This document shows, piece after piece, positions 5,471 to 42,372 of a stretch of 51,301 bases of DNA. Location: NCBI GenBank assembly GCA_959605275.1, contig CAUHFD010000001.1, forward strand, positions 1 to 51,301. Direction: 5' to 3'. The stretch comes from an uncultured Eubacteriales bacterium. Its GTDB lineage: Bacteria; Bacillota; Clostridia; Oscillospirales; Ruminococcaceae. The notes beneath the pieces are model-generated. The model made no database searches, was not told the DNA's origin, and was given only the letters and a program-made list of their open reading frames with translations. A program made the position numbers and the translations under genes. Position 1 is the stretch's first letter. Each line of letters opens with the position of its first letter.

Positions 5471-5523
5471 GCTGTCTTCGTACAAAACGGTCAAAAAGAT
5501 GACTTGAATGCCAGGAGGTACAT

Positions 5524-7062: not shown

Positions 7063-7078
7063 AAAAAATTAATTTGAC

Positions 7079-7151: not shown

Positions 7152-7179
7152 CCATATTAAGGAAAGAGAGGCTCTATCT

Positions 7180-9273: not shown

Positions 9274-9305
9274 TGATCTTTCAAAATCCGATTTATGCGA
9301 AAGGA

Positions 9306-10271
9306 ATGGTCAAGGAAATGAACGGAAAGAATACGGTGACCGAAAAAATTCAGAATAACCGTTTGATCAGTAAATACACAAGCAAAAAAGGCGTCATCTG
9401 GATTCTGTATAAAATAGTCAGAGCGGTTATCGTAATTGGTATTTGTTTTATGATCATATATCCTTTTTTGATGAAATTTATTGTTGCGTTTATGTCTGAA
9501 GCGGATTTGTATGATCCTACGGTTCGTTACCTGCCACGTCACTTTTCGCTGGAAAACATCCAATATGTTTTGAATAAGATTGATTGGCTGCATACCGTTC
9601 CGGTCAGCCTGCTGCTTTGTGTGGTGGTGACGCTTTTAACGATAGGCAGTTGTACCACGATTGCATATGGTTTTGCACGGTTCGATTTTTGGGGAAATAA
9701 AATTTTGTTTGCCATGGTCATTTTCACGTTGATTGTTCCGCCGCAAACGATGGTTTTGGCAATCTTTATGAGGTTCAAGGATTTTGATGTGGCGGGTTTA
9801 ATCAATCTTATAACAGGTCATCCGCTTAACTTACTGAACACTTATGTGCCGTTTATTTTGATGAGCATGCTGGGCGTCGGGTTTCGGAACGGACTTTATA
9901 TTTTTCTTCTGCGTCAGTATTTTCGCGGTGTTCCGAGAGTGCTGGATGAGGCGGCGGCAATTGACGGCGCCTCTACATTCCGCATTTTTGTTCAAATTAT
10001 TCTGCCCGGTGCGGTTCCGATGATGGTTACAGTCGGCATGTTTGCTTTCGCATGGCAGTGGACAGATACGTTTTATTCCTCGCTTTTGGCACCGCAAAGC
10101 AATCTGGTTACGGTGGTCATGCCGACGATTACGGCATATATGGATCAAATTATGTCATCTATGGTAAAAAATACGGGGACCTTTTTACTGGTGATTCCGT
10201 TGATCCTGCTTTATATTGTTTCTCAGCGATTTATGGTAGAGGGAATCGAAAGAAGCGGTATTGTCGGATAA
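9306..10271 (+). CDS. sugar ABC transporter permease (MalG/LplC-like; G2 of locus A)
   Basis: EAA loop LDEAAAIDGASTFRIFVQIILPGAVP and six predicted TM segments. The ORF-track start at 9156 overlaps the upstream gene, so in-frame ATG 9306 (or 9318) just after the stop at 9273 was chosen. Confidence 0.8.
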   Translation: MVKEMNGKNTVTEKIQNNRLISKYTSKKGVIWILYKIVRAVIVIGICFMIIYPFLMKFIVAFMSEADLYDPTVRYLPRHFSLENIQYVLNKIDWLHTVPVSLLLCVVVTLLTIGSCTTIAYGFARFDFWGNKILFAMVIFTLIVPPQTMVLAIFMRFKDFDVAGLINLITGHPLNLLNTYVPFILMSMLGVGFRNGLYIFLLRQYFRGVPRVLDEAAAIDGASTFRIFVQIILPGAVPMMVTVGMFAFAWQWTDTFYSSLLAPQSNLVTVVMPTITAYMDQIMSSMVKNTGTFLLVIPLILLYIVSQRFMVEGIERSGIVG

Positions 10272-10324: not shown

Positions 10325-11815
10325 ATGAAATTAAGAAGATGCTTAGCGGGAGCTTGTATTGCTGCGATATTAATATCCACTTTCGCAAGCTGCGGCGGAG
10401 ACTCTAAAGAACCGACGAACTCCGGTTCTTCCTCCTCGACTCCGTCTGTTACTGATTCTGCGGAAATGGAAAAAATGCGAAATGAAATTTTAAAAGATGT
10501 CACTTTTGAGGAAAGAGAAGCAGAAAAAGACAGCTACGATTTCGGCGGCAAAACCGTCATTATCGGATCTCCCTGGATTCATGAGCTGTTTTTGGAGCCC
10601 GGTACAACAGAAGCCGGAGACAAATGGTTGGCACGAGTAAAAGAAGTTGAAGATAAATACAACGTAAAAATTAAAACTGTATCAACGGAATATGGTTATT
10701 TCTGCGACCAATTAATGACGGCGGCACAGGCAAATACCAAATTTGCTGATATTATTGAACTGGATTCCAGATGGCTGGCGATCCTGGGATATCCCGGCTA
10801 TATCAAGCCGCTCAATAAGGTAAAAACAGGCATTAATATTAAAGATGCCAAATGGCATCCGACACAACTGCGTGCCAGCAAACAGAATAAGAATATTTAC
10901 GGCGTAAAAAAAGATCCGGTCGAAATGCAGAATGTTGTATTTTGGAATAAAACTTTATTTTCGGAACAAGGTTTGCCGAATCTATATGAGCTGGTCGAAA
11001 AGAAAGAATGGACCTGGGATAAAATGAAGGAAATCGCCGTACAGGCAACGAAGGACAGCGATAACGACGGAACACCGGATCAATGGGGCTTCGGCGGGTG
11101 TGAAACGGAAAGAAGCTTCATTCTGTCTAACGGAGGCAGCATCATGAAAGAAACTGCGGACGGAAAGATGGAATTTACGATGAACAATCCGGCTACCATT
11201 GAAGGTCTCGATTTCTTACAGGATTTGATGTATAAAACGAAATGTATGGAAGTAGTAGACGTTAACGCTGACTGGCGGTATCAGTGCGATCCGCAGTTTA
11301 TGAATCGTGTTTATGCAATGGTCAGCTTCCCGTTTTACGGAGCGGATGTCTGGTTCCAGTATATGGAAGATGATTGGGGCGTTGTACCTTTCCCGATCGG
11401 ACCGAAAATGGACGATTATATTATTCCGGCAGAGTACAATCGTAACTGGGCGCTCACCAACAACAATCCGGATGAAGAAATGGCAAGCGTTGTGATGGAT
11501 GCGCTATTTTCTCCGTATGCGGACGAAACGGCAGATTCATGGAAAGATCGTTACACCGAAGTGCTGCGTGACGAAGAATCCATGCATATTATTGAGCAGT
11601 TGCTTTCAGGAGATCATTTTGTTCTGGATATTACGGGATATTTCCCGAAAGTGGGCACCAGTTCTGATATTATCGGCTGGTACAAGAGTGCCAATAATTG
11701 TATTTATTATAATGTTTATACCAATCGAAAAACACCTGCTGCCGCAATTGCAGAAAAACAAGACCAAGCAAAAACGTTAATAGACGATTTCTTTAAAGAT
11801 ATAAAATTACAATAG
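10325..11815 (+). CDS. extracellular solute-binding lipoprotein, sugar ABC transporter (LplA-like, ~500 aa; SBP2 of locus A)
   Basis: Lipobox ISTFASCGGDSK, S-rich linker, SBP family-1 length and pattern. Paralogous to 39195-40820 (KEWTWDKMKEI vs GQWTWDKFEEV). Confidence 0.75.
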   Translation: MKLRRCLAGACIAAILISTFASCGGDSKEPTNSGSSSSTPSVTDSAEMEKMRNEILKDVTFEEREAEKDSYDFGGKTVIIGSPWIHELFLEPGTTEAGDKWLARVKEVEDKYNVKIKTVSTEYGYFCDQLMTAAQANTKFADIIELDSRWLAILGYPGYIKPLNKVKTGINIKDAKWHPTQLRASKQNKNIYGVKKDPVEMQNVVFWNKTLFSEQGLPNLYELVEKKEWTWDKMKEIAVQATKDSDNDGTPDQWGFGGCETERSFILSNGGSIMKETADGKMEFTMNNPATIEGLDFLQDLMYKTKCMEVVDVNADWRYQCDPQFMNRVYAMVSFPFYGADVWFQYMEDDWGVVPFPIGPKMDDYIIPAEYNRNWALTNNNPDEEMASVVMDALFSPYADETADSWKDRYTEVLRDEESMHIIEQLLSGDHFVLDITGYFPKVGTSSDIIGWYKSANNCIYYNVYTNRKTPAAAIAEKQDQAKTLIDDFFKDIKLQ

Positions 11816-13997: not shown

Positions 13998-16901
13998 ATG
14001 AAGTTGAGAAAAGGTTTCTTAAAAGCAGACTCGCTCATTTTATCTATGCTGTTTGTATTGAGCGTATTTGCGTTCAACGGGTCGTCGGCTTTTGCAGAGG
14101 AAGCAAATCAAACAACAGAAACTTTGCAATCTCAGGACGAATATTCTTATGCCGATTATCAAAAAGAACACAGTGCACAGAAAGCGGCTGAATCTGAAAT
14201 CGTATTGGATCCGCTTCAGTATCAAAATGCAGAACATGTGAAGTCGGAAGAAACCGACGGAAAACTGGCGCTGACTACCGAAGAAAACAGTACGGTGACT
14301 TATGAGTTTGAGTCCCCGGAAGATGGTTTGTATCATTTGATTTTAGAATATTATCCTTTATTAGGTAAAAATACAAAAATTGAGCGAAAGCTGTATATTG
14401 ACGGAAAAATATTGTTCGATGAACTTGGACGAATCGAATTAAATCGAATTTATAAGGATCAAGAGCCTGCCATAGAGAAAGATACCAACGGAAATGAATA
14501 TTTTAACGGATTGATAGAAGCAGCACAGTGGATTTCGTATGCAATTGAGGATAGTTACGGTTACTATAAAGATCCATTTCAGTTTTATCTTGCCAAAGGT
14601 AAGCATACCTTAACGATAGAATCTGTGAAAGAGCCGGTTGCAATTGGCGGAATCACTTTTAAAAATCTGCCGTCGGCACGGTCTTATGCCGAGGTCTTGA
14701 ATGAATGGAAAAAGAACGGGGCGACTGACGCTACCGAAAATCTGCCTATTCTTGAGGCGGAAAAGTCAGACAGAAAATCAGACTCTATCCTGACTCCAAC
14801 CTATGACCGGAATTCCAGCAAGACAACGCCGATATCCTGCGAGACGATTAAAATGAATATTATCAGTTCCGATAAGTGGCAGCAAGCAGGGCAATGGTTG
14901 GAATGGGAGATCGATGTCAAGCAAAGCGGATTATACAAAATGGCATTTCGGGTACGCCAGAATACTAATGATGGTATGCTGTGCACCAGAAAACTGTTGA
15001 TTGACGGGAATGTTCCTTTTGCCGAAGCGGAAAATATTACAGTGGGATATGATACCAAATGGCAGATCGTAACACTCGGAAAGGATCAAGAACCCTATTA
15101 TATCTATTTGGAAAAAGGACGGCATACGCTTCGTCTTCAGAATACGCTGGGAGAGACAGCGGAAGTTCTGGTCAAGGTAAACGGAATCTTGCAACAGCTG
15201 AATCAATGCTATCGTGAGATTATGATGATTACGGGAGCATCCCCCGATACTTATCGGGATTATAAACTGGATAAATTGATTCCTGATACGATTGAAAATC
15301 TAGGTAAACAATCTAAGGCTTTAGAAGAAGCCATGAACGACATGAGGGCGAAAACCGGAATAAAAGGTTCTTATCTCGCTCCGCTGGATCGTTTGATGAT
15401 TGAAACCAAAGAGATGAGTGAGGATCATACCCGAATTCCCAAGCTGTTTGATAGCTTTGAAAACAACATCGGTTCCTTGGCAGCTTGGATCACATCTTCT
15501 CAGGCGCAGCCGCTGGATATCGATAAGATTTATTTGGTGACGCCGGACTATGAGCTGCCGAAAGCAGAAGACAATTTTTTCGTTCAACTATGGCATGACG
15601 TCAAAGTGTTTATCAGTTCTTTCTTTAATAATGTAGACAAGTTTGATGCGGCAAATGAAAAGAAAAACATTAAGGTTTGGATCGGTTCAAGTGCTGCTGC
15701 CGGGCGCGATCAAGCACAGCTGATCAAGCGGATGATTGATTCAAAGTTTACGCCGCAAACCGGGATATCCGTTAATTTTGAGTTGGTGGCGGGCGGATCA
15801 TTGCTGCCGGCGTCCCTAAGCGGAAACGGCCCGGATGTCGCCATGTGGGTTGGTGCCACTGAAACCATGAATTATGCGTTTCGCGGTGCGGTAGAGGATA
15901 TTTCCAAATATGACGGATTCGATGAAATGAAAAGTCAGTTTTTGGACAGTGCGATATTACCTCTCAGCTATGACGGAAAGACATACGGACTGCCGGAGGC
16001 ACAGCAGTTTTCGGTGATGTTTTATCGAAAGGATATTTTGAATGAATTAAAGCTTTCGGTGCCGGAAACGTGGGACGATGTTTATAATATGCTTTCTACT
16101 TTACAGCGGAATAATATGAATTTTGCGCTTCCGGTTAGTTCATTCAGCACAAGCGAAGCATTGAGTGTTTCCAGTAATATTACCCCCGGCGTAAAAAGTT
16201 TTGCAATGTTGCTTTATCAAAACGGCGGTACACTTTATCGTGACGGAGGACGCTCGTCCGCGTTGGATGAGAAAGTGGCGATTGATACCTTTAAGCAATG
16301 GACGGATTTTTATAAAAACTATAAACTTCCGCTCTCTTATGATTTTGCCAACCGTTTTGCTATGGGAGAAATTCCGTTGGGTATTGCGGATTACGGTATG
16401 TATAACAATCTGATGATTTCATTCCCGGAAATAAAAGGCTTATGGGATTTCACCAGCGTTCCGGGTGTAAAGAAACCGGACGGCACCGTAGATCATTCCA
16501 CTACTTGCGACGTACAGTGCTGCATTATGATGTCCAAAGCAAAAGATAAAGAATCAGCGTGGGAGTTTATGAAGTTTTGGACATCTTCCGAACAGCAGAT
16601 CGAATTCGGCAGAGATATTGAAGCATTGCTCGGACCGAGCGGACGGTGGCCCTCCGCAAATATTGAGGCAGTAAAACAGATCCCTTGGAAAACAAATGAT
16701 TTAAACAATCTGATGGCACAGTGGAAATGGGTAAAAGGCATTCCGGAGGTGCCGGGCGGTTATTATACAATTCGTTACCTTGATTTCTCTTTCCGCAGCG
16801 TTGCTTATAACAAACAGAATCAAAAAGATGTTTTGCTGGATAATGTTCGTATTATTAACAACGAGCTTTCCACCAAGCGAGAAGAATTCGGTTATGATTG
16901 A
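13998..16901 (+). CDS. giant (967 aa) extracellular solute-binding protein: two tandem beta-sandwich (CBM-like) modules, a helical linker and an SBP family-1 domain
   Basis: Signal peptide. Internal repeat (GLYHLILEYYP...RKLYIDGKILFDE...FYLAKGKHTLTIESV vs GLYKMAFRVRQN...RKLLIDGNVPFAE...IYLEKGRHTLRLQNT). The C-terminal half is SBP-like (YGLPEAQQFSVMFYRKDIL...WDDV). Paralog of 47574-50438. Confidence 0.75.
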   Translation: MKLRKGFLKADSLILSMLFVLSVFAFNGSSAFAEEANQTTETLQSQDEYSYADYQKEHSAQKAAESEIVLDPLQYQNAEHVKSEETDGKLALTTEENSTVTYEFESPEDGLYHLILEYYPLLGKNTKIERKLYIDGKILFDELGRIELNRIYKDQEPAIEKDTNGNEYFNGLIEAAQWISYAIEDSYGYYKDPFQFYLAKGKHTLTIESVKEPVAIGGITFKNLPSARSYAEVLNEWKKNGATDATENLPILEAEKSDRKSDSILTPTYDRNSSKTTPISCETIKMNIISSDKWQQAGQWLEWEIDVKQSGLYKMAFRVRQNTNDGMLCTRKLLIDGNVPFAEAENITVGYDTKWQIVTLGKDQEPYYIYLEKGRHTLRLQNTLGETAEVLVKVNGILQQLNQCYREIMMITGASPDTYRDYKLDKLIPDTIENLGKQSKALEEAMNDMRAKTGIKGSYLAPLDRLMIETKEMSEDHTRIPKLFDSFENNIGSLAAWITSSQAQPLDIDKIYLVTPDYELPKAEDNFFVQLWHDVKVFISSFFNNVDKFDAANEKKNIKVWIGSSAAAGRDQAQLIKRMIDSKFTPQTGISVNFELVAGGSLLPASLSGNGPDVAMWVGATETMNYAFRGAVEDISKYDGFDEMKSQFLDSAILPLSYDGKTYGLPEAQQFSVMFYRKDILNELKLSVPETWDDVYNMLSTLQRNNMNFALPVSSFSTSEALSVSSNITPGVKSFAMLLYQNGGTLYRDGGRSSALDEKVAIDTFKQWTDFYKNYKLPLSYDFANRFAMGEIPLGIADYGMYNNLMISFPEIKGLWDFTSVPGVKKPDGTVDHSTTCDVQCCIMMSKAKDKESAWEFMKFWTSSEQQIEFGRDIEALLGPSGRWPSANIEAVKQIPWKTNDLNNLMAQWKWVKGIPEVPGGYYTIRYLDFSFRSVAYNKQNQKDVLLDNVRIINNELSTKREEFGYD

Positions 16902-16925
16902 TTCTCCGTCGAAATAAATTTTCCA

Positions 16926-17924
16926 ATGAAAGCAGGAAAGGTGGGGCACGGGCATATTAATGCTCTCCAAAACATGAGAAAGCAATTACAAAGCAATAAA
17001 ACAACACCCGCTGTCGGTGCAAGAGGATATTTTCGTTGGAAGTGGCAGGAAGCAAAAAGGGAACGGCTGATGTATCTGTTCGTTTTGCCGTATGTATTTG
17101 TGTTCTTCCTTTTTACACTGCTTCCGGTCATCATATCCATCATTCTCAGTTTTACAAACTTTAATATGATTCGCACGCCGGAATTTGTCGGGATCAGCAA
17201 TTATTTAAAGATGTTTCTCAAGGACGAAATTTTTACCAAGGCATTGCAGAATACCTTTATTTTTGCGGTGGTAACCGGACCGGTAGGGTATATTCTCAGC
17301 TTTGCTTTTGCTTGGCTGATCAATGAACTGCCGCAGAAATTGCGCGCTTTTATGACGCTGATTTTTTACGGTCCATCCATATCCGGTAACGCTTATTTGA
17401 TTTGGGCGGTATTTTTCAGCGGTGACAGCTACGGTTTTGTCAACGGTACGCTGCGCCGGATGGGATTGATCAGTGAACCGATCCAATGGTTTACGGATGC
17501 CAACTATATGATCCCGGTCTTAATTGTTGTTATGTTATGGATGAGCCTGGGTACTTCATTCTTGGCTTTTCGTGCAGGCTTGCAGGGAATTGATAAATCG
17601 TTGTTTGAAGCGGCTGCCGTGGACGGACTTCGCAATCGCTGGCAGGAGCTTTGGTACATCACCTTGCCGTCTATGCGGCCGCAATTGATGTTTGGTGCGG
17701 TAATGAGCATTACAACGGCATTCGGAACAGGAGATGTTATTACACAACTGTCCGGTTTCCCGACAACGGATTATGCGGCACATACATTGGTACATCATTT
17801 ACAAGATTACGGTACGGTTCGTTTTGAGATGGGATATGCAAGCGCTATTGCTACGATTTTGTTTCTCATGATGATCGCCTGTAATATCGTAATCAAAAAA
17901 TTGATTTCTAAGGTCGGGGAGTAA
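16926..17924 (+). CDS. sugar ABC transporter permease (MalF/LplB-like; F1 of locus A)
   Basis: EAA loop LFEAAAVDGLRNRWQELWYITLP. Paralog of the partial CDS at 50490. The start is uncertain: in-frame ATG 16974 is an alternative, and neither has a good SD. Confidence 0.8.
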   Translation: MKAGKVGHGHINALQNMRKQLQSNKTTPAVGARGYFRWKWQEAKRERLMYLFVLPYVFVFFLFTLLPVIISIILSFTNFNMIRTPEFVGISNYLKMFLKDEIFTKALQNTFIFAVVTGPVGYILSFAFAWLINELPQKLRAFMTLIFYGPSISGNAYLIWAVFFSGDSYGFVNGTLRRMGLISEPIQWFTDANYMIPVLIVVMLWMSLGTSFLAFRAGLQGIDKSLFEAAAVDGLRNRWQELWYITLPSMRPQLMFGAVMSITTAFGTGDVITQLSGFPTTDYAAHTLVHHLQDYGTVRFEMGYASAIATILFLMMIACNIVIKKLISKVGE

Positions 17925-17973
17925 TTGCAAGCGGACGGGCATATACCGGTCGTAATTGGAGGGAACATTTCAA

Positions 17974-18837
17974 ATGAAGAAAAAAATCCTGAAAAGGCGT
18001 ATCAACCGTTCGGTAGCGGGAGATATCGGCGTCTTTTTGGTTTTGCTGATCGGCGGGCTGTTCATGTTCTTGCCGGTACTGTATATTATCAGCAACGCAT
18101 TTAAACCATTGGATGAGCTCTGGATTTATCCGCCGCGATTTTTCGTAAGGAATCCCACGATCAAAAACTTTACCGATCTTTCCATTGTGGCTTCCTCCTC
18201 GTGGGTGCCTTTTATGCGGTATGTTTTTAATACGGTAGCCATCACGGTGATCGGTACGGGCGGTCATGTTATTATTGCGTCGCTTTGCGCATATGCGTTG
18301 GCAAAGCATGTGTTTCCGGGTAGCCGGTTGATTTTCTCTACCATCGTTATTGCATTGATGTTTAATCCGGTCGTGACCAGCATTCCTAATTATCTGATCA
18401 TGTCTGAAATCAAATTGATCGACACGCTTTGGTCATTGATTATACCGGCATTTGCGCTCCCGCTCGGACTTTATCTGATGAAGCAGTTTATGGAGCAGAT
18501 GGTTCCGGATACTGTGCTGGAGGCAGCACGCATCGATGGTGCCGGCGAAGGGAAAATATTTTTTCGTATTGTAATGCCCATTGTAAAACCGGCATGGCTG
18601 ACTCTGATATTATTCTCATTTCAGTCTCTTTGGGCAACGGGAAACAGTTCGTTTATTTACAGTGAGGAATTAAAAACGCTGCAATATGCACTGAATAACA
18701 TTAAGAGTGCGGGACTTGCCCGAGCCGGTGCACATGCTGCCGGTACGCTGATTATGATGTTGGTGCCGATTACTATTTTTCTGTTGACACAAAGCAGGAT
18801 TGTTGAAACAATGGCAACATCCGGAATGAAAGATTGA
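17974..18837 (+). CDS. sugar ABC transporter permease (MalG/LplC-like; G1 of locus A)
   Basis: ATG 17974 is preceded by GGAGGG (17958-17963); the track start at 17956 is a TTG. EAA loop LEAARIDGAGEGKIFFRIVMP. Confidence 0.85.
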   Translation: MKKKILKRRINRSVAGDIGVFLVLLIGGLFMFLPVLYIISNAFKPLDELWIYPPRFFVRNPTIKNFTDLSIVASSSWVPFMRYVFNTVAITVIGTGGHVIIASLCAYALAKHVFPGSRLIFSTIVIALMFNPVVTSIPNYLIMSEIKLIDTLWSLIIPAFALPLGLYLMKQFMEQMVPDTVLEAARIDGAGEGKIFFRIVMPIVKPAWLTLILFSFQSLWATGNSSFIYSEELKTLQYALNNIKSAGLARAGAHAAGTLIMMLVPITIFLLTQSRIVETMATSGMKD

Positions 18838-18899
18838 TAGCTGATTTGTCAATAGGATAAGCAATATAAAACGGTTCCATGAAAGGATTGGTTTCCATA

Positions 18900-20459
18900 A
18901 TGGTGAAAAAAATATGGAAGGTTGCAGTTTGCATCACCGCTGCTTTGCTGCTGTTTTCAACGACAACATTGGCGATTGTACCTTATCAGAGCTATACATA
19001 TAACTACTGGAAAGAAAAGAAAGATATTCCGTCTGCCTATCTTCCGGATCAGGTTTATACGGCGGAGCAGATGAAGACGACTGCTTTAAAAAATCCTTCT
19101 GATCTGTTTATTGCAGCAGACGGTCGGTCATATATTGCAGATACCGACAATAACAGGGTGTTGATATTAAATGCTGATATGACGCTGACGCGGGAGATCA
19201 GGGAAATCACATATCGCGGGGAGACATCGGAGCTGAAAATGCCGGAGGGCGTTTATTGCGATAAGGACGGCGAACTGTATATCTGTGATACCGGAAATTA
19301 CCGTATAATTCGATTTGATGCGAATGGCATGATCAAACAAATTTATTTAAAACCCGATTCTGCTTTGCTGGATGCGGAAACCCCGTTTCAACCGACAAAG
19401 TTAATTGTGGATAAGTCTAAAAAGCTGTATGTGATCGCCAAAGGGATTAATATGGGCTTGTTGGAAATCAGTGAGGAGGGAATTTTAGATAAATTTATTG
19501 GCGCACCGACTGTTTATACAACGCCGGTGGAATATTTTTGGAAAATGATTGCCAGCAAAGAGCAGCGTTCCCGAATGGAAAGTTACGTTCCGACAGAATA
19601 CAATAATCTGTTTCTGGATCATGAGGGATTCATTTATGTGACAAACAATTCCGTTTCCGAGGAACAAATTATGGAAATGGTGGCTGCAAAGGATACCAGC
19701 GGAGATTCTGCACCGATTAAAAAGCTGACGTTATCCGGAGAAGATATTTTGGACAGAAACGGTTATTTTCCTCCGGTGGGAGATTTATTATTCCCGGTAA
19801 AGAATCAAGAGTACAGTACGGAAGACGATGAAACAAAGGACTATCTGAAGGAAAGCGAAAAGGGCCCCTCCAGTTTGATGGATGTTGTTGCTTCAGAGGA
19901 CGGAACATATGCAGTGCTGGACTCTAAACGCGGACAAATCTTTACCTATGACGCCGACGGCAATCTGCTGTTTGTGTTCGGTGGGTTGGGTGGTCAAGAC
20001 GGTACTTTCGTCAGCCCGGTTTCTATATGCCAATATCAGGAAAGATATTATGTACTGGACAAGGTGCTTGGTACGATTACCATGTTTTCCCGTACTTCTT
20101 ACGGTCAGGATGTTCTGGATGCGATACAGGCTTATAACAACAGTGACTATACGAAATCCGAGACCTGTTGGAATAATGTTATCCGAAAGGATGCAAATTC
20201 GGACATTGCTTATTTCGGCCTCGGAAAAATTAAACTGATGGAAAATGATTATCAGCAAGCCATGAAGTATTTTAAACTGGCAAACCGGCGGGATTATTAT
20301 TCCAAAGCATTGAAGCACTATCGCAATGATACGGTCGGAAAGGTAATTGGAATCACCGTTTTTGCGGCAATCGTTCTGGTTATGTTTACGGTGTTTATTT
20401 ATCGCACGATTTGCGGCATCATCCGTGTAGTTAATTTCGGAAAGGGTGGTGAACGATGA
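18900..20459 (+). CDS. extracytoplasmic NHL-repeat beta-propeller protein with a TPR-like region and C-terminal TM anchor (triad member 1, copy A)
   Basis: Signal/TM segment MVKKIWKVAVCITAALLLFSTTTLA. NHL repeats SYIADTDNNRVLILN and LYICDTGNYRIIRFD. C-terminal helical repeats (YQQAMKYFKLA) are followed by the TM helix VIGITVFAAIVLVMFTVFIY. Start chosen by alignment to paralog 40912. Confidence 0.75.
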   Translation: MVKKIWKVAVCITAALLLFSTTTLAIVPYQSYTYNYWKEKKDIPSAYLPDQVYTAEQMKTTALKNPSDLFIAADGRSYIADTDNNRVLILNADMTLTREIREITYRGETSELKMPEGVYCDKDGELYICDTGNYRIIRFDANGMIKQIYLKPDSALLDAETPFQPTKLIVDKSKKLYVIAKGINMGLLEISEEGILDKFIGAPTVYTTPVEYFWKMIASKEQRSRMESYVPTEYNNLFLDHEGFIYVTNNSVSEEQIMEMVAAKDTSGDSAPIKKLTLSGEDILDRNGYFPPVGDLLFPVKNQEYSTEDDETKDYLKESEKGPSSLMDVVASEDGTYAVLDSKRGQIFTYDADGNLLFVFGGLGGQDGTFVSPVSICQYQERYYVLDKVLGTITMFSRTSYGQDVLDAIQAYNNSDYTKSETCWNNVIRKDANSDIAYFGLGKIKLMENDYQQAMKYFKLANRRDYYSKALKHYRNDTVGKVIGITVFAAIVLVMFTVFIYRTICGIIRVVNFGKGGER

Positions 20460-21097
20460 TGACGGCAGTTTTAAGTAAATTTTGGAAGCAATTTCGATAT
20501 AGTTTTCACATTTTGACTCATCCTTTTGACGGATTTTATGATATCAAGCATGAGAAAAAAGGAAGCGCTGCCATTTCTACGCTTTTTGTTTTTCTATTGA
20601 TTGTTACCTTTATCCTTAAAAGACAGTTTACGGGTTTTGTTTTAAATACCAGCCGACCGTCTGATCTTAATATCTTTGCGGAAGCTGCCGGTGTTTTGCT
20701 GCCGTTTGGATTGTGGTGCATCTCTAATTGGTGCTTAACAACCTTAACGGAAGGAGAAGGCAGTTTTCGGGATATTTATATTTATTCCGGCTATGCATTG
20801 TTGCCTATGATTTTAATTAATTTGCCGATGATTGTTTACTCGAATTTTGTTGTGCAAGAGGAAGCGGGCTTTTACAGTTTCTTTATTGGATTGGCTATGG
20901 TATGGAGCGGCTTGCTGTTTATGGTAGGCACGTTAGTGACGCATCAGTTTACTTTATCCAAAACCATTTTTTCTCTTGTGGTGATTATTGTCGGTATGGG
21001 CGTGATTGCTTTTATCGGACTGCTGTTTTTTAATTTGATTCAGCAGATGTATGATTTTGTTTCTAATCTTTATTATGAATACAGTTTCAGAATTTAA
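20456..21097 (+). CDS. Yip1-family multipass membrane protein (triad member 2, copy A)
   Basis: ATGA overlap with the upstream stop and AAAGGGTGG SD. 5 hydrophobic segments. THPFDGFYDIKHEKKGS...WCISNWCLTTLTEGEGSFRDIY is conserved in paralog 42369. Confidence 0.7.
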   Translation: MMTAVLSKFWKQFRYSFHILTHPFDGFYDIKHEKKGSAAISTLFVFLLIVTFILKRQFTGFVLNTSRPSDLNIFAEAAGVLLPFGLWCISNWCLTTLTEGEGSFRDIYIYSGYALLPMILINLPMIVYSNFVVQEEAGFYSFFIGLAMVWSGLLFMVGTLVTHQFTLSKTIFSLVVIIVGMGVIAFIGLLFFNLIQQMYDFVSNLYYEYSFRI

Positions 21098-21112
21098 CGA
21101 GGAGGGTTATGT

Positions 21113-23677
21113 GTGCGTCTGAAAATAAGTAAAAGATGGATCCGTATCATTTCTGTCCTCCTTGTTGTTTTTTTAGTTGTTGGGTTTGCCTTCTTTTTGT
21201 TCAGCAATTCCGGCACTCAGGTGAATCGAGACAAAAGCAGGATCGGGAAAATCGTCAAAAGCACAAAGACTCCTATTAGTGATTCTATGCAAACGGTGGC
21301 GGAAAACGAAAAATATCGTTTTCTTTTTAACGGCGCCAATTGTCAATTCGGTATAGAAGTAAAAGAAACCGGAAAAATTTGGTACTCTAATCCCCAGGAG
21401 TCTGACGAACTGAAAAAAGATGTTAACAAGGCCAATATCAATAAAGTAAATTCGCAGCTTGTTATTCACTATTATAATTCGCTTTCTGAAGACAAAGAAA
21501 TGGACTCACAATCTTATGCCATAGAGCCGAAGCAGTACACGGCAAAAAAAATCAAGAACGGTGTAGAGGTCACCTATTCTTTTGCTTACCCGGAAAGTGA
21601 TGAGATTTATCCGAAAGTTATGACAAAAACGCGGTTTGAAGAGTTAATGAAAAAATTGACTTTCAGTGCCGATCAAAAGCTCATGAAGAAGTTATATTCT
21701 CTGATGAGTAAAAACGGGCTCAGCAAGGAAGATTATGCAAAATTAACCGAAAAGTATCCGATTTTGGCGGAACAGGATATTTATGTACTGCGTGAAGGAC
21801 AGATGAATGTTTCAAACAAGAAGAATCTGTCGAAATTATTTGAAAAGCTGGAATACACCAAGCAGGATGTTAAAAAAGATCATGAGGAGTGTCAATTTTC
21901 CGGCTCAAGCGGGGACGGAGAAAGTTATACGATCCCGGTCAGTTATACTTTGGAGGAAGATGGATTCCGCGCTGAGATCGACGGTCAGAATATCCGTTAT
22001 ACCGAAGCGGATGGTGGATTTTATCCGCTTGTAAGCATTGAATTTCTTGATTATTTCGGCTGTACCAAAAGTACTGATGAGGGATATTTTTTGCTCCCGG
22101 ATGGCAGTGGCTCTTTAGTAGATTTGCAATCAGACAATAAAAACACAAGTTTTGAGGGCTATGTTTACGGGAAAGATAAAGCGATTTTAAGTCTGAATAA
22201 AACTTCGTATAATGAGAACATCACCCTGCCAGTTAAAGGGATAAAGACCGGTAATGAAGCTGTTTTTGCAGTGATAGATGACGGAGACGCCATGGCACGT
22301 ATCCGAATGGAAAAAGCGGGGGACGGGATTCCCTATAATCGAATCAGCACAGCATTTGATGTCATGAATATGGATTATATCCCGATCGGAGACGTGGCAA
22401 CCCGCGAAAATTATTATGTTTATTCTAACGATATTTTCAGCGGAAAAATGTCTGTGAAATATTATTTTCTGTCAGGCGAAAAAGCAAATTACAAGGACAT
22501 GGCGGAACAATATCGGGAACATCTGATTCAAGCAGGAACGCTGCCGAAACAACCGCAGGAAAATAACAGCGCTATGCTGCTGGAATTTCAGGGCGCAGTG
22601 GATGCCATACAAACAGTGGCGGGTGTTCCGGTTCGTACGGTGCTGCCGTTAACTACTTTTTCTCAGATGCAGGAAATTGTGACCGGTTTGCAAGAAAACG
22701 GCGTAAAGCAACTGTCAATCACTTGTACCGGATATTATAAAGGCGGATATAAAACAGGTTTGCAGGATAAGCTTGCAGTGGAAAACAAACTGGGAGGAAC
22801 AGATGGTTTAAAACAGTTTGCCGCTTATCTGAAACAGCAAGGCATCGATTTTTATCCGGGCGTAGATCTGCAAAATGTGTCGAAAGATAGCTTGTGGGAT
22901 CGTTTTAACAGAAAAACGCATGCGGTTCGTAATATGACAAGAGAAGTGTTTCGTTTAAATCAAAAGTATCTTTTGTCGCCTCGATATTTACCGGAAATGT
23001 CCATGTCTTTCTATGAAGGACTGCAGAATAGTCAAATTCAAGGCGTTAGTCTGACCGGTTGGGGTAAACTGCTGTATTCGGATTTTAATACGCAAAGACC
23101 TGTTTTGCGGCAGGACAGTTTAGAGGCACTTGCGCAAAGCGCCGCACAAATAAAAGATGCCGGAGGCAAGCTGCTGATGGACGGACCGAATGCTTATATT
23201 TTGTCTTACGCAGATCAAATATCCAATGTACCGATGAGCGACAGTAGCTATCGCGTGACGGATTCTTCTGTGCCTTTTTATCAAATGGTCATTCATGGGT
23301 ATAAAAGTTATGCGGGAACACCGATCAATTACGAAGGAGAAGCAGAAATTGCTATGCTGCAATCTGTGGCGACCGGATCTATGCTGAATTTTAAACTCAT
23401 GGCTGAGCCGGGATATACGCTGAAAGAGACGGATTACAGTGAGATGTACGCTTCCGGTTACTCAGAATGGAAAGATGAAATTCTTTCTATGTATCGCAGA
23501 ACGGCTGATACGCTTACCAGAATTTCCGGAAAAAGAATGAGCGATTATCATATGCCGGAGACGAAATTGAGCGTTTCGACTTTTGAGGACATCACTGTTG
23601 TAGTAAACTATTCAGATAACGATAAAAATTATCAGGGACATATTGTAAAAGCAAGAGATTTTATTGTCATCGGGTAA
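21113..23677 (+). CDS. N-terminally anchored 854-aa extracytoplasmic protein, DUF5696-like (triad member 3, copy A)
   Basis: GTG start 6 nt after GGAGGG (21101-21106). TM helix WIRIISVLLVVFLVVGFAFFLF. Motifs YFLLPDGSGSLV, GIDFYPGVD and VPFYQMVIHGY are shared with 43069-45690. The DUF5696 label is from memory of how such proteins are annotated and is not verified. Confidence 0.6.
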   Translation: MRLKISKRWIRIISVLLVVFLVVGFAFFLFSNSGTQVNRDKSRIGKIVKSTKTPISDSMQTVAENEKYRFLFNGANCQFGIEVKETGKIWYSNPQESDELKKDVNKANINKVNSQLVIHYYNSLSEDKEMDSQSYAIEPKQYTAKKIKNGVEVTYSFAYPESDEIYPKVMTKTRFEELMKKLTFSADQKLMKKLYSLMSKNGLSKEDYAKLTEKYPILAEQDIYVLREGQMNVSNKKNLSKLFEKLEYTKQDVKKDHEECQFSGSSGDGESYTIPVSYTLEEDGFRAEIDGQNIRYTEADGGFYPLVSIEFLDYFGCTKSTDEGYFLLPDGSGSLVDLQSDNKNTSFEGYVYGKDKAILSLNKTSYNENITLPVKGIKTGNEAVFAVIDDGDAMARIRMEKAGDGIPYNRISTAFDVMNMDYIPIGDVATRENYYVYSNDIFSGKMSVKYYFLSGEKANYKDMAEQYREHLIQAGTLPKQPQENNSAMLLEFQGAVDAIQTVAGVPVRTVLPLTTFSQMQEIVTGLQENGVKQLSITCTGYYKGGYKTGLQDKLAVENKLGGTDGLKQFAAYLKQQGIDFYPGVDLQNVSKDSLWDRFNRKTHAVRNMTREVFRLNQKYLLSPRYLPEMSMSFYEGLQNSQIQGVSLTGWGKLLYSDFNTQRPVLRQDSLEALAQSAAQIKDAGGKLLMDGPNAYILSYADQISNVPMSDSSYRVTDSSVPFYQMVIHGYKSYAGTPINYEGEAEIAMLQSVATGSMLNFKLMAEPGYTLKETDYSEMYASGYSEWKDEILSMYRRTADTLTRISGKRMSDYHMPETKLSVSTFEDITVVVNYSDNDKNYQGHIVKARDFIVIG

Positions 23678-23744
23678 GGCGTCGGTCAAATTATTGGAGG
23701 TAAGGTGGTGACAGGGTACAACCGATTACAAAGGTGAAATCAAA

Positions 23745-23786
23745 ATGACCGGATTTCAGGTTGTACTGTTCAAATGGCAAAGATAA
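23745..23786 (+). promoter_or_regulatory. 13-codon upstream mini-ORF overlapping the permease start codon (possible translational coupling device)
   Basis: ATG 23745 sits 7 nt after AAGGTGA (23731-23737) and encodes MTGFQVVLFKWQR. Its stop is at 23784-23786. The permease ATG at 23774 has no SD of its own. Confidence 0.3.
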
Positions 23787-24667
23787 AGCTAACAATGAAA
23801 CAAAAGCATGATGCAAAAGGATATCTGTTTGTATTGCCCTTTATCCTTGGTCTTCTGCTGATTTTTCTGGTATGTCTCGGTACTTCATTGAAGGATAGTT
23901 TTTTTACCTTTATTCGCGTGGACGGCATAGCGGAACCTAAATTTGTTTGGTTTGAAAATTATTGGAAAGCACTTCGTGTCGATCCTGATTTTGTTCGTAT
24001 TATGCTGACTACGGTAGGCAATATGTTGCTGAATCTGCCAATCATTCTTATTTTCAGCTTTTTTGCGGCAAATTTGCTTAACCAGAAATTTATCGGACGC
24101 TCTTTAGCACGTGCTATTTTTTTCTTCCCGGTCATTGCTTCAATAGGGATTATAGCATCTTTTAACAGCGGAGACCTGTTAATGGGAATGATGGCGACAG
24201 GAGGACAGCAATCCAGTTCCATGATGTCTTCGCAGGTGAAAGATCTGTTGCTACAAACCAATCTGAATCATAATATTGTCGGCTATATTACCGGAGCGGT
24301 CGATCGGATTTATCAAATTGTGAACATGTCCGGTGTCCAGATATTGGTTGCTCTGTCGGGGCTTCAATCCGTTTCTCATTCTCTTTATGAATCGGCTGAT
24401 ATTGACGGAGCGACCGGATGGGAAAAATTCTGGAAGATCACGTTTCCGATGATGGGACCGATCTTAATCGTAAACGGAGTGTATACGATCATTGATCTGC
24501 TGACACAGACCGATAATCAGCTTATGACCATGATAAAGGGAACTGCTTTCAATTCCGGTCAATACGGTTTTGCCAATGCAATGTCATGGATTTACTTTTT
24601 GGTGATTACCGTTATACTCTGTATATTGGTGATCCCTATTTCCAGAAAAGTATTTTATCAGGAATAA
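23774..24667 (+). CDS. sugar ABC transporter permease (MalF-like; F2 of locus A)
   Basis: EAA loop LYESADIDGATGWEKFWKITFP. Paralog of 45683-46606. Confidence 0.8.
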   Translation: MAKIKLTMKQKHDAKGYLFVLPFILGLLLIFLVCLGTSLKDSFFTFIRVDGIAEPKFVWFENYWKALRVDPDFVRIMLTTVGNMLLNLPIILIFSFFAANLLNQKFIGRSLARAIFFFPVIASIGIIASFNSGDLLMGMMATGGQQSSSMMSSQVKDLLLQTNLNHNIVGYITGAVDRIYQIVNMSGVQILVALSGLQSVSHSLYESADIDGATGWEKFWKITFPMMGPILIVNGVYTIIDLLTQTDNQLMTMIKGTAFNSGQYGFANAMSWIYFLVITVILCILVIPISRKVFYQE

Positions 24668-24698: not shown

Positions 24699-24728
24699 GG
24701 TACAGGATTCTGCTCCTGTACCTTTTTT
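24699..24728 (+). terminator. perfect 9-bp hairpin plus T6, ending at the GH29 start codon
   Basis: GGTACAGGA (24699-24707), loop TTCTGC, TCCTGTACC (24714-24722), TTTTTT (24723-24728). The ATG at 24729 follows directly. Confidence 0.55.
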
Positions 24729-34887: not shown

Positions 34888-35015
34888 GACGATAAAAGAA
34901 AAGAGAATTTTTGACCACACGAGTAACTAACGCGCTTTGCGATTGCGTTGTATCTGTTGGTTATGAATTCAGGTCAGTTTCAGTACATATTATTATATTG
35001 CTAGGAGGATTACTG

Positions 35016-39194: not shown

Positions 39195-40820
39195 ATGAAA
39201 TTTAGAGGGAAAAGTTGTTTGACAATTATTATTTCATTGTTGATGACAGTTTCTATGGTTGGATGCGGAGGAGGAGGCAACACCTCTTCCGTTGTCAGCA
39301 AAAACAACAATGATTCATCTGTTGAGAGTTCTGCAGACACAGAAGGTGCGAACTCCGGTGATGCATCGCTTAACGGTACGATATCTGAAAATACTTCCGG
39401 TGCCGCAAACAATGAAGCTTCGGATAAAGACACGGCAAATAATAGCGGAACCAATAATGCAGCCACTTCCAGCAAAGCAAATAATGATAAAATACTGGAT
39501 AAGATTCCAGGGGCAGGTACTATTATTAATTCCAAAAATTACGACATGAAGGGAGCTACTGTAAAAATCGGTAAATGGTACGGTTTCCATGAAGCAACCG
39601 GTACCGACGAAACCGCGAAACGGCAAAAAGCAATCAACGAAAAAATCGAAAAAACCTTTAATTGCAAGTTGCAATTTGTTGAAGTAAAATCCGGCTCTGA
39701 TCCTTCTTTGAAGGCATCTATTTTGTCAGGAAAGCCCAAAGTGGATTTCTTTGGCGTTCAAGGAATCGGCACTTTTTATGATTTATATTCCGCCGGATGT
39801 TTAATGCCGTTAGATAGCGTTTCTGGAATGAATATCAAGGATACTTCCAGATTTATTTTGCATGACGAGACAAAATTCAATGGGAAATATTATGGAGTAG
39901 GTCAAAAAGTTTATGGATGGTTAAATTTAAATTTCAATAACATCTTAATGTGTAATTTTGATTTAACAGCACAAGCCGGTTATCCCGCCAGTACTATTTA
40001 TGGTTGGATGAACAGTGGTCAATGGACTTGGGACAAATTTGAGGAAGTCTGCAAGGCTGTTTCCAAAATCAGTGGAAAATATGGCATCAGTGATTTGGAT
40101 CAGAATAAAATGTATGGCTTTGATTTGAGTTATGAACTTTATTCTTCCATGTTATATTCCAATAATACCGACTGGGTTATTAAGAAAAATGACGGTTTTG
40201 TTTTCAACGGTGGGTCTAAAGAAGCACTGGATGTTTTAAATCGATATGCGTCTTGGGCAAATCCCAACACTGGGTTTGTGAAATTTACCAAAACGGCATA
40301 TGACGATTTCCAAAACGGAAAAACAGCTTTTCTGGCGAATATTTATCCGTTGCCGATTATTGCTACATGGGCTTCCGGATCTTATAAAACCGGTGCGTTG
40401 TATTTCCCGAAAGGTCCGAATGCGACCAATTACGTTTCTAAAGCCTATGAATCATTATTTGTTGTTATACCGAAAGGTGTAAGCAACTTTAATGCAATCG
40501 GTGCAATCGCAAATGCGTTTTGCACACCGCTTTATTCCGATGCGGAAAGCCGTACATTGTGTAAAAATGATGTTATGAAGACCGCAAAGCTAACAGAATC
40601 AGTTAATGCAATGATGAAAATGTTTGATGATAAGAGTGCATATTCTTATCCCACGTCGTTATATGGTACAGCGGCCGGGTTAGGTATTGGTGAAAGCAGC
40701 AGTAAACTCGGATGGTTTGATTATGTGCGTAAAGTGGCACAAGGAGAAATGACAGCTCAGTCCGCAATAGATGCCTTTAGTTCGCGTGCAAATAACGTGC
40801 TGGCATCTACTTATAACTAA
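39195..40820 (+). CDS. extracellular solute-binding lipoprotein, sugar ABC transporter (SBP2 of locus B)
   Basis: Lipobox TVSMVGCGGGGN, N/S-rich linker. Paralog of 10325-11815. Confidence 0.75.
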   Translation: MKFRGKSCLTIIISLLMTVSMVGCGGGGNTSSVVSKNNNDSSVESSADTEGANSGDASLNGTISENTSGAANNEASDKDTANNSGTNNAATSSKANNDKILDKIPGAGTIINSKNYDMKGATVKIGKWYGFHEATGTDETAKRQKAINEKIEKTFNCKLQFVEVKSGSDPSLKASILSGKPKVDFFGVQGIGTFYDLYSAGCLMPLDSVSGMNIKDTSRFILHDETKFNGKYYGVGQKVYGWLNLNFNNILMCNFDLTAQAGYPASTIYGWMNSGQWTWDKFEEVCKAVSKISGKYGISDLDQNKMYGFDLSYELYSSMLYSNNTDWVIKKNDGFVFNGGSKEALDVLNRYASWANPNTGFVKFTKTAYDDFQNGKTAFLANIYPLPIIATWASGSYKTGALYFPKGPNATNYVSKAYESLFVVIPKGVSNFNAIGAIANAFCTPLYSDAESRTLCKNDVMKTAKLTESVNAMMKMFDDKSAYSYPTSLYGTAAGLGIGESSSKLGWFDYVRKVAQGEMTAQSAIDAFSSRANNVLASTYN

Positions 40821-40870: not shown

Positions 40871-40911
40871 ATGTTGTTTTAATTTTGTTTTAAAGGCAAG
40901 GAGTGCTGTAC

Positions 40912-42372
40912 ATGAGAGGACGACAAGGTATTTTGACAGCAGTGATAGCCATATGTTTGACCACTTCGGCTGCTGCTGCCACGCCATATCAAAATTACAC
41001 CTATGATAAAAGTCAAGAACCCCAAGCAGAACCACAGGCTTATGTACCGGTACAAGCTGTTAGCGGCGTGATGGCCGGAACTATCGATTTTTCTGAACCG
41101 CAGGATATTTTTGTTGCTGAAAATTCCAACATTTATATTGCTGATACCGGCAATAATCGAATTGTTGTTTTAAATAAAGAGATGCATTTTGTAGAAGAAA
41201 TCAAAGAATTTCAAAATAATGGGCAGATTGATACCTTTCGAAAACCTTCGGGCGTTTACGTTACAGAGGAAAATGAACTTTATATAGCAGATACAGAAAA
41301 CCAGAGAATAGTTGTGTTACAGGCAAACGGTTCTTTGAAAAAAATTGTCAGAGAGCCGAAAACATTGGATGGAGAACTTCCATATACTTACAATCCGATT
41401 AAAATTGCTGTAGATTTTGCAGACAGGATTTATGTGGTTTCTAAGAATTGCAGTAATGGGATTATTGAATTTGACAGGGACGATTCTTTCCTCGGATATT
41501 ACGGGGCAGTTCAAACACAACCAGATTTAATGTATTTGTTTTGGAAATCTATTGCAACTGAGGCGCAAAAGGCAGCTATGACGTTGACTATTCCTACTGA
41601 ATACAGCAGTCTGGATATTGATGCTAAAAGTTTCATTTACGGAACTGTTAGTGCAATCGATACCGATAATTTTAGTTCGTCTATGTTTATTCATAAGTTG
41701 AACCCGATAGGATCCGATGTTCTCAAGAGAAATGGTTTCGCAGATCCGATGGGAGATGTCAAATACATAAAAGAAAATGAAAATGGGATACCTGACATTT
41801 CTAAATTGTGTGATGTATCTGTGCAGGGCAATGGAGTGTATTCGGTATTGGATTCAAATAAAGGTCGGGTTTTTACCTATAATGATGCCGGAGAGTTGCT
41901 TTATATTTATGGGGGTATCGGTGAAAATTTAGGTACGTTCGGGAATCCGATTGCTATTGATGTTACTGCAGATAAACACAGCCTGGTGTTGGACAGTAAG
42001 TATAACCAAATTGTCGAATTTAAGCCGACAGAATATGCTAAATTGACGCTTCAAGCGATTCAATCTCATGCTGAACGGAAATATGATGATGCAGCAAATT
42101 TTTGGAAAGACGCCTTAAAGTACACTTCTGAATCCAGTGTTGTATTTAAAGAAATCGGTAATGTTTATTATAATCAAGGGTTATATGATAAAGCAATGCA
42201 ATATTACAAATTGGCATATGATAATGTAAGTTACTCGAATGCATACAAATATTGGAGAATGGAGTTCCTTTCCAAAAATTTCGGTATATTTATGACTTCT
42301 CTGATAGTGATTATCGGGATATTGATTGTGATTAAGGTCATCTTTAGAAAAAGAGCAAAAGAAAGGCTGTGA
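40912..42372 (+). CDS. extracytoplasmic NHL-repeat beta-propeller/TPR protein with C-terminal TM anchor (triad member 1, copy B)
   Basis: AAGGAG SD 8 nt upstream of ATG 40912. IYIADTGNNRIVVLN, LYIADTENQRIVVLQ. YDKAMQYYKLA is followed by the TM helix IFMTSLIVIIGILIVIKVIF. Confidence 0.75.
   Translation: MRGRQGILTAVIAICLTTSAAAATPYQNYTYDKSQEPQAEPQAYVPVQAVSGVMAGTIDFSEPQDIFVAENSNIYIADTGNNRIVVLNKEMHFVEEIKEFQNNGQIDTFRKPSGVYVTEENELYIADTENQRIVVLQANGSLKKIVREPKTLDGELPYTYNPIKIAVDFADRIYVVSKNCSNGIIEFDRDDSFLGYYGAVQTQPDLMYLFWKSIATEAQKAAMTLTIPTEYSSLDIDAKSFIYGTVSAIDTDNFSSSMFIHKLNPIGSDVLKRNGFADPMGDVKYIKENENGIPDISKLCDVSVQGNGVYSVLDSNKGRVFTYNDAGELLYIYGGIGENLGTFGNPIAIDVTADKHSLVLDSKYNQIVEFKPTEYAKLTLQAIQSHAERKYDDAANFWKDALKYTSESSVVFKEIGNVYYNQGLYDKAMQYYKLAYDNVSYSNAYKYWRMEFLSKNFGIFMTSLIVIIGILIVIKVIFRKRAKERL

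Follow-up and report, generated by a model that had tools for sequence, protein, structure and literature searches.

Sugar importers of the ATP-binding cassette (ABC) type that depend on a substrate-binding protein (SBP) are thought to need only the SBP, two permeases and an ATPase, and the CUT1 importers of the Bacillota commonly have no ATPase gene in the operon, the ATPase being encoded elsewhere. Yip1-family proteins also occur with ABC transporters: YknW of the Bacillus YknWXYZ system is reported to modulate transporter assembly, contacting both the membrane subunits and an extracytoplasmic partner (PMC4887032). Two characterised glycosidases are also relevant here: DagB (ZgGH129), a periplasmic exo-enzyme encoded in a polysaccharide utilization locus (PUL) of the Bacteroidota, and NagBb, an intracellular enzyme of Bifidobacterium that belongs to glycoside hydrolase (GH) family GH129. 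Here we analyze a 51,301-nucleotide stretch of DNA from an uncultured Eubacteriales bacterium (contig CAUHFD010000001.1; the whole stretch is called the window), in which genes encoding an NHL/TPR protein, a Yip1-family membrane protein and a DUF5696 protein lie within a CUT1-type importer operon. We read this trio as the extracytoplasmic accessory part of a widespread and conserved glycan-import module, with DUF5696 binding or processing glycan and the NHL/TPR and Yip1 proteins acting as scaffolding, and assign this reading a probability of roughly 0.55.

The three genes are consecutive on the forward strand: NHL/TPR (18900..20459 with an alternative start at 18879; 519 or 526 amino acids), Yip1 (20456..21097; 213 amino acids) and DUF5696 (21113..23677; 854 amino acids). 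Both in-frame ATGs of the first gene (18879 and 18900) occur in public gene calls. The junctions described in an earlier note on this DNA were all present in the sequence. An ATGA overlap at 20456-20459 joins the NHL/TPR and Yip1 genes, an arrangement of translational coupling, and a 15-nt spacer separates Yip1 from DUF5696, with GGAGGG at 21101-21106 standing 6 nt ahead of the GTG start at 21113. The trio also lies, as had been proposed, between BPD_transp_1 permease genes inside a CUT1-type importer operon, Pfam matches being obtained on both flanks. A scan of 13998-24667 found no convincing terminator inside that interval. A strong terminator-like hairpin (24699..24722, forward strand; a 9-bp stem with 5 GC pairs, then a TTTTTTATGT T-run) comes directly 3' of the stop codon of the downstream permease gene, p3. 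As this hairpin lies within the TTG-start open reading frame (ORF) listed for the GH29 gene that follows, the latter probably starts at the ATG near 24729 (MYEANWES...).

The arrangement recurs in other genomes. Contigs encoding homologues were collected from three independent entry points, namely DUF5696 homologues down to 23% identity, NHL/TPR homologues, and six Lachnospiraceae loci that surfaced by accident in a search with a fragment of the Zobellia DagB enzyme. These gave 18 distinct external loci, and in 17 of them the genes for NHL/TPR, Yip1, DUF5696 and two permeases follow one another in that order. Where the flank was long enough, a gene for a giant SBP (936-1064 amino acids) and two further permease genes precede the trio, giving a full block of giant SBP, p1, p2, NHL/TPR, Yip1, DUF5696, p3 and p4. 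Genes within the module overlap by 4-8 nt, and one external locus (L057) shares the rearrangement seen in the window, in which p4 comes first. The sources include uncultured Clostridia, Anaeromassilibacillus, Lederbergia citri, Caldibacillus lycopersici, a Mycoplasmatota genome and a Spirochaetales metagenome-assembled genome (MAG). The co-conservation on which the earlier note had staked its proposal was found in 17 of the 18 external loci and again in a second copy within the window. Its claim of novelty also stands, as searches of the literature on DUF5696, PF18952 or the combination of Yip1, NHL, SBP and permease found nothing relevant and no publication on the cluster. In full, the module has a giant secreted SBP, in most cases a small SBP lipoprotein as well, two CUT1-type permease pairs, and the NHL/TPR, Yip1 and DUF5696 proteins, and it is highly probable that the latter three are dedicated accessory parts of it. 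The Spirochaetales MAG (L053) carries the full eight-gene module. Spirochaetales are diderm, and the exported parts of the module would in that organism be periplasmic rather than surface-exposed.

The second copy in the window (copy B, the first being copy A) is also on the forward strand. It comprises genes for an SBP-like lipoprotein of 541 amino acids (39195..40820; lipobox VGC, no Pfam match), an NHL/TPR protein (40903..42372; NHL at 54.7 bits), a Yip1 protein (42369..43019; PF04893 at 60.6 bits, the gene overlapping that of NHL/TPR by 4 nt), a DUF5696 protein (43069..45690; PF18952 at E=7e-176 and 587 bits) that is a probable lipoprotein (IPGC), permeases p3 (45683-46606) and p4 (46619-47548), and a giant SBP of 954 amino acids (47574..50438; SBP_bac_8 at E=3e-25, with a signal peptide and no lipobox). 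Copy B has neither p1 nor p2, indicating that the trio can work with a single permease pair. Identities between the copies are 46% for Yip1, 42-43% for p4, 38% for the giant SBP over its full length, 37% for p3, 34% for NHL/TPR, 27% for DUF5696 and 22% for the small SBP (the 541-residue lipoprotein against the 496-residue SBP of copy A, E=4e-10). Judged by these values DUF5696 and the small SBP are the fastest-evolving components and Yip1 and the permeases the most conserved. Such a division would be expected were DUF5696 and the small SBP to touch the substrate as specificity determinants, the other components forming the core machinery. Copy B is headed by a gene (34911-39182) for a surface protein of 1423 residues, with four CBM6 domains, a CBM35-like domain, Big_2 and FIVAR domains and, at the C-terminus, a hydrophobic segment. 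No recognisable catalytic domain was found in this protein.

The NHL/TPR protein of copy A has an NHL six-blade beta-propeller. It scored 43 bits against the Pfam NHL model (cut-off 20) and matched the PknD-derived six-blade 'Pizza' propellers (Pizza6/7 and PknD) at E=1e-27 over 5-6 repeats. The TPR region scored 18-22 bits, under the Pfam cut-offs of 27-33, although the weak matches recur in both copies and designed TPR proteins match the copy A protein at E=3e-4. Thus, of the propeller plus TPR architecture proposed in the earlier note, the propeller is secure and the TPR part stays below the Pfam cut-off. A signal peptide (...TLA, the mature protein beginning IVPY) and a single C-terminal transmembrane (TM) segment at residues 489-507 of the 526-residue form give a topology with the propeller and TPR ectodomain outside, the C-terminal helix crossing inward and the tail inside. 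The closest named relative is from a 'Saccharofermentanales bacterium' MAG (57% identity). The Yip1 protein of copy A is a family member as had been stated, with about five TM segments: it matched PF04893 at 60.5 bits (cut-off 28.6) over model positions 1-172 of 173 and has five hydrophobic segments. NCBIfam holds no model for this Yip1 protein.

In some genomes the two proteins are one. NHL/TPR and Yip1 form a single polypeptide in loci L004, L005, L006, L051, L052 and L057, and among the matches listed about 27 of 120 NHL/TPR homologues are such fusions, of 669-735 residues. Such natural fusions argue strongly that the separate window proteins also work as a single unit. In them the Yip1 helices come straight after the inward-crossing C-terminal helix, matching the topology predicted for the separate proteins. 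An AlphaFold2 model of one natural fusion, P0130 (pLDDT 89, pTM 0.78), has a propeller of about 24 strands (residues 31-383) followed by about four TPR-like helices (385-445), roughly two repeats. The Yip1 helices come after a long helix in which the membrane span is contained. The only structures that Foldseek found for this model were NHL propellers that bind ligands or proteins (among them TRIM71, Thin, Brat and Pizza; TM-scores 0.73-0.78), with no match for the Yip1 part and no enzyme template. A scaffold or docking role for the NHL/TPR-Yip1 unit seems possible, although we would put it somewhat below an even chance. Docking is the role we favor mainly because a non-lipidated SBP in a monoderm cell needs to be retained at the surface, and YknW offers a precedent for a bacterial Yip1 protein as an ABC transporter subunit that modulates assembly.

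The third protein had been labeled 'DUF5696-like', which was correct but understated, as the copy A protein is a full-length member of PF18952 (569 bits, E=1.3e-170, model positions 2-612 of 612; gathering threshold 25.6 bits). In a set of 1.84 billion clusters made at 50% identity, at least 4275 representatives belong to the family (E<=1e-30). The copy A protein has a single N-terminal TM segment (residues 12-30), and DUF5696 is tethered at the outer face of the membrane by this TM anchor in copy A and by a probable lipid anchor in copy B. The AlphaFold2 model (46 family members; pLDDT 88, pTM 0.85) has three domains: a beta-sandwich at the N-terminus, interrupted by a helical insert (about residues 162-262), a TIM barrel (about 480-805) and a second beta-sandwich at the C-terminus. 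When this model was compared with the PDB by Foldseek, the matches were to GH129-type structures (TM-scores 0.70-0.72 overall), including DagB/ZgGH129 (5opq; E=1e-32, TM-score 0.70) and Bifidobacterium NagBb (E=4e-25, TM-score 0.71). Weaker matches were obtained to the GH101 endo-alpha-GalNAc-ases (E of about 1e-17 to 1e-19, TM-scores 0.28-0.35) and to GH36 (E of about 1e-14 to 1e-16, TM-scores 0.43-0.47).

Sequence profiles gave the same relatives. A DUF5696 profile searched against PDB sequences matched DagB (E=1.4e-11) along three collinear segments and also NagBb (E=6e-7). The sequence signal lies in the N-domain, in the C-domain and in the first strands of the barrel. Alignment by hhalign of 109 DUF5696 sequences with 34 DagB-family proteins was collinear over 645 columns (Prob 100, E=2e-41). 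The 34 proteins were taken from genome loci, as a protein search with the ZgGH129 fragment gave only an 82-residue fragment, and the published DagB numbering (D202, D486, E517 and E531; PMC5698469) was checked on the Zobellia uliginosa orthologue (L007). Scans of 46 DUF5696 members against Pfam at E<=1 found no second family and neither Glyco_hydro_129 nor Glyco_hydro_101. The longer DUF5696 proteins (970-1370 residues) contained no informative fused domain, NCBIfam has no model for DUF5696, and a single-protein scan of genome contigs with DUF5696 gave no match. That DUF5696 has the GH129-superfamily fold is nearly certain. Within the GH129/GH101 superfamily it forms a new branch, and it was not placed in GH129 itself because the residues that define catalysis in DagB and NagBb are not conserved. 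The statement in the earlier note that the trio lacks a catalytic signature therefore fails at the level of fold and superfamily (DagB, E=2e-41) and holds for the DagB catalytic residues E517, E531 and D202. Similarly, the match to a characterised carbohydrate-active enzyme (CAZyme) family that the note had considered fatal to its proposal was found only as distant GH129/GH101 homology, not as family membership.

The nucleophile of DagB is D486 and its NagBb counterpart is D435. In the hhalign alignment D657 of DUF5696 pairs with DagB D483, three residues from the nucleophile, in a stretch of low alignment confidence. Close by, R666 pairs with DagB R493, and the motif P721-F-Y-Q-M-V-I-H pairs with DagB P549-L-F-N-L-V-Y-H. 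Across 255 DUF5696 sequences (the set used for all conservation values given here) position 657 is Asp in 90% and Asn in 5%. DagB E517 aligns to the D690 column, which is acidic in 39% of the family and Asp throughout the copy A clade. DagB E531 aligns to S704, a hydrophobic or variable column, and DagB D202 aligns to a gap. On this alignment D657 is probably the nucleophile of DUF5696, and the chance that the family comprises catalytically active glycosidases may be even or slightly better. Loss of catalysis in part of the family is plausible from the same columns.

The importer genes of copy A, all on the forward strand, include an SBP of cluster-B/D type and two MalF/MalG-like transmembrane domains (TMDs) with EAA motifs, as in a CUT1 importer. 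All-against-all BLAST sorted the permeases of the module into four orthogroups, p1-p4, and the EAA-x2-DG coupling motif is kept in all four classes, so that all look like functional importer subunits. Those of copy A are p1 (16926..17924; MalF/UgpA-like class 1, BPD_transp_1, EAA-x2-DG motif at residue 228), p2 (17956..18837; MalG/UgpE-like class 1, assigned by BPD_transp_1, orthogroup and EAA motif), p3 (23774..24667; MalF-like class 2, BPD_transp_1 at E=1.7e-7, p3 orthogroup, ESADIDGA motif) and p4 (9303..10271; MalG-like class 2, BPD_transp_1 at E=2.5e-13), the last having an uncertain start, as its ORF is listed from 9156. Besides its 42-43% identity to copy B p4, this protein is 30-37% identical to other p4 proteins and about 25% identical to the p2 class. 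Three permeases had originally been counted in copy A; recognition of the p4-type gene upstream at about 9303-10271 makes them four. No ABC_tran (ATPase) domain was found by Pfam in the 31 window ORFs (all non-nested ORFs of at least 150 amino acids), and the cognate ATPase is presumed to be encoded elsewhere.

Copy A encodes two SBPs. The small SBP (10325..11815; 496 amino acids, SBP_bac_1 at E=4e-18) is a lipoprotein with the N-terminal lipobox FASC, and in most loci a lipobox-bearing SBP of 430-560 residues accompanies the module. The giant SBP (13998..16901; 967 amino acids, SBP_bac_1/8 at residues 576-873) has a type-I-like signal peptide and no lipobox. Its C-terminal oligosaccharide-binding domain has the Listeria protein Lin1841 as the best PDB match (E=1.3e-17), and its N-terminal 550 or so residues contain two tandem beta-sandwich-like repeats. 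The earlier description of a 967-residue SBP fused to a carbohydrate-binding module (CBM) stands as regards the SBP. For the CBM part there is the internal repeat (E=3e-6) and a sub-threshold similarity to CBM6/35-like and Golvesin_C domains. Full-length homology links the giant SBPs of 9 loci (24-53% identity), which have signal peptides or anchors and in no case a canonical lipobox. The lipobox is missing from the giant SBPs of both window copies and of L001-L006, L051 and L052, and the small SBPs of the same loci are all lipoproteins.

Downstream of copy A are genes for a GH29 fucosidase, a GH38 mannosidase, a GH29-like protein and a HAD hydrolase, all without signal peptides, and the glycosidases among them would act on imported fucose- or mannose-containing oligosaccharides. 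The HAD-family gene (339 amino acids, listed with a TTG start) shares 13 nt (28888-28900) with the end of the GH38 gene, and its real start may be further downstream. Upstream of copy A are genes for a GntR-type regulator with a sugar-binding domain, FucU, an aldo-keto reductase and a URO-D-like protein. The URO-D gene lies in 25-2378 beside those for FucU and the aldo-keto reductase, and another lies near the module in L003 (20750-21904); such genes are unexpected in sugar loci. Also upstream, 4065-9273 encodes a secreted fn3-domain protein of 440 amino acids, a secreted 512-residue protein without a Pfam match, and a lipoprotein of 697 amino acids that is a putative glycoside hydrolase of the GxGYxYP family (7180-9273). 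In other genomes the CAZymes beside the module are GH35/PF10091/GH94/GH3, GH16, GH26, GH43, GH36 or GH92. Because the module is constant while the flanking CAZymes vary, it behaves as a generic uptake cassette.

Several observations weigh against a processing role for DUF5696, or against the wider assignment of the trio to glycan import. No carboxylate is invariant in DUF5696: D355 (92%), D717 (82%) and D330 (80%) all fall short, and column 753 is Glu in 85% of sequences but Ala in copy A. In contrast P329, G331, G333, P721, N739 and N832 are 98-100% conserved. The remaining machinery of DagB and NagBb (E517, E531 and D202 of DagB and E478 of NagBb) is not conserved across the family. A profile of the catalytic half-barrel alone, searched against PDB sequences, retrieved no glycosidase. 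The GxGYxYP lipoprotein is exported at locus A, so DUF5696 need not be the only surface enzyme there. The most divergent DUF5696 (701 residues; 10001-12106 of L056, the one exception among the 18 external loci) is an orphan amid phoH, ybeY, era and recO, with no NHL, Yip1 or permease genes in its neighborhood. Finally, we infer both that NHL/TPR-Yip1 acts as a scaffold and that the giant SBP is retained. Much of this would suit a catalytically dead, GH129-derived surface glycan-binding protein, in function comparable to SusE/F or SGBPs, that presents substrate to the SBPs while other exported enzymes do the cleaving. On that reading the missing invariant acidic residue, the Asp-to-Asn replacement at 657 in about 5% of members and the non-conserved equivalents of DagB E517, E531 and D202 would be expected, as would a module that stays constant while its substrate context varies. 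Candidates for cleavage or binding elsewhere are also at hand in the exported putative hydrolase at locus A and the CBM6-rich surface protein at locus B. However, D657, D355, D717 and E753 are each 82-92% conserved, above expectation for a pure scaffold, and the copy A clade retains both D657 and D690. Moreover, a shifted acid/base is normal in this superfamily, the residue differing between the characterised NagBb and DagB (PMC5698469), which makes a displaced acid/base in DUF5696 plausible. We therefore regard a dead enzyme as a doubtful explanation, if one to be taken seriously.

The remaining alternatives take the trio out of nutrient transport. L055, in which the module adjoins zapA, maf, mreC and a penicillin-binding protein gene and has few adjacent CAZymes, could be taken to mean that the module handles the cell's own envelope polymer, in turnover or assembly of a wall glycopolymer or exopolysaccharide, and the orphan DUF5696 of L056 amid housekeeping genes could be read likewise. 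This is improbable given that the TMDs are of importer type with EAA motifs, that the module includes SBPs, that most loci have catabolic regulators and cytoplasmic exo-glycosidases or phosphorylases, and that the window also has FucU and aldo-keto reductase genes. A role as an envelope sensor outside the transport path, the NHL propeller sensing ligand as in PknD and Yip1 transducing the signal so that glycan availability is reported to a regulator, is very improbable. The closest bacterial structural relatives of the propeller do derive from the PknD sensor domain, and LacI-, GntR- or AraC-type regulators flank many loci, but such regulators are soluble and bind sugar themselves, with no need of a membrane sensor. 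The trio itself has no kinase, helix-turn-helix, GGDEF or anti-sigma domain, its cytoplasmic parts are only short loops, and it is always placed between permease genes rather than beside the regulator. That the genes entered the operon by chance and are functionally unconnected with the transporter has nothing in its favor, and the order and orientation kept in 17 of 18 loci across phyla, the gene overlaps, the fusions, the paralogous second copy and the lack of an internal terminator reduce it to a negligible probability.

If the trio is indeed the accessory part of a glycan importer, DUF5696 would bind extracellular glycan at the membrane surface and most members would cleave it. D657 would serve as the nucleophile, and in members of the copy A clade D690 would stand where DagB has E517. 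The NHL/TPR scaffold, anchored by Yip1, would keep DUF5696 and the non-lipidated giant SBP beside the translocons. The oligosaccharides released could then be imported through p1/p2 and p3/p4, powered by an ATPase from elsewhere, and be finished by cytoplasmic exo-glycosidases. The idea of a glycan capture or processing complex put forward in the earlier note thus survives as plausible, with DUF5696 as a concrete candidate for the processing step. Its other suggestion, an assembly or gating factor for the giant SBP, stays conjectural. A bolder proposal is that the eight-gene block represents an unrecognised class of glycan-uptake machine of monoderms and some spirochaetes, in which a Yip1-anchored NHL/TPR scaffold physically couples a surface GH129-like enzyme of a new family, a secreted giant SBP perhaps bearing CBM-like domains and a lipoprotein SBP to two translocons. 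As a modular cassette combined now with one CAZyme set and now with another, it would match Sus-like systems in function. We offer it as a speculation, with the odds against it.

The module is common in Bacillota of gut, soil and rumen and beyond (at least 4,000 DUF5696 clusters at 50% identity), and it always adds three envelope proteins, usually together with a second permease pair and a giant SBP. Should the trio couple surface glycan processing to import, DUF5696 would constitute a new glycoside hydrolase family, the NHL-TPR-Yip1 protein would acquire the first nutrient-uptake function for a bacterial protein of this kind, and the module would become a genomic marker for complex-glycan loci of Gram-positive bacteria, as susC/susD pairs are in the Bacteroidota. 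It also suggests, in a form open to testing, how monoderm cells may keep non-lipidated SBPs at their surface. So common, conserved and uncharacterised an addition to a textbook transporter would surprise specialists.

Compared with the described systems, DUF5696 shares its three-domain architecture with DagB/ZgGH129, a GH129-like alpha-1,3-(3,6-anhydro)-D-galactosidase (5opq and 8rzg-8rzk), and with NagBb (5wzn-5wzr), and the GH101 enzymes EngBF and SpGH101 and GH36 are more distant relatives. DagB and DUF5696 have in common the motif P-x3-G of the N-domain and, following the fifth strand of the barrel, P-[FL]-[YF]-x-[ML]-V-x-H, as well as an Asp that aligns beside the nucleophile position. 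DUF5696 differs from DagB and NagBb in being only about 12-16% identical to them, in being anchored to the membrane and in carrying a helical insert some 100 residues long. Unlike the DUF5696 gene, those encoding DagB and NagBb are neither in an ABC importer operon nor beside NHL or Yip1 genes. YknWXYZ resembles the present locus in that a bacterial Yip1 protein is encoded with an ABC transporter. YknYZ is a MacB-type exporter that works with a membrane-fusion protein, whereas the transporter here is a CUT1-type SBP-dependent importer and its Yip1 protein is joined, by coupling or by fusion, to an NHL/TPR ectodomain.

The characterised CUT1 importers, MalEFG/MsmEFG and the system of the Listeria sophorooligosaccharide SBP Lin1841, have in common with the module their SBP_bac_1/8 proteins and MalF/MalG-like permeases with EAA motifs, the lack of an ATPase gene in the operon and the cytoplasmic exo-glycosidases encoded downstream. 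The module departs from them in having two permease pairs, two SBPs and three extra envelope genes, which include the NHL/TPR-Yip1 unit and a tethered GH-like protein, and in a giant SBP that lacks a lipid anchor and carries an N-terminal extension of about 550 residues. The Sus-like systems of the Bacteroidota (SusCD plus surface glycan-binding proteins) are related by functional analogy only. They have likewise a constant cassette, variable CAZymes and a surface-tethered protein of glycosidase fold, but there a TonB-dependent transporter of the outer membrane, with no homology to the module, does what would here fall to an ABC importer of the cytoplasmic membrane.

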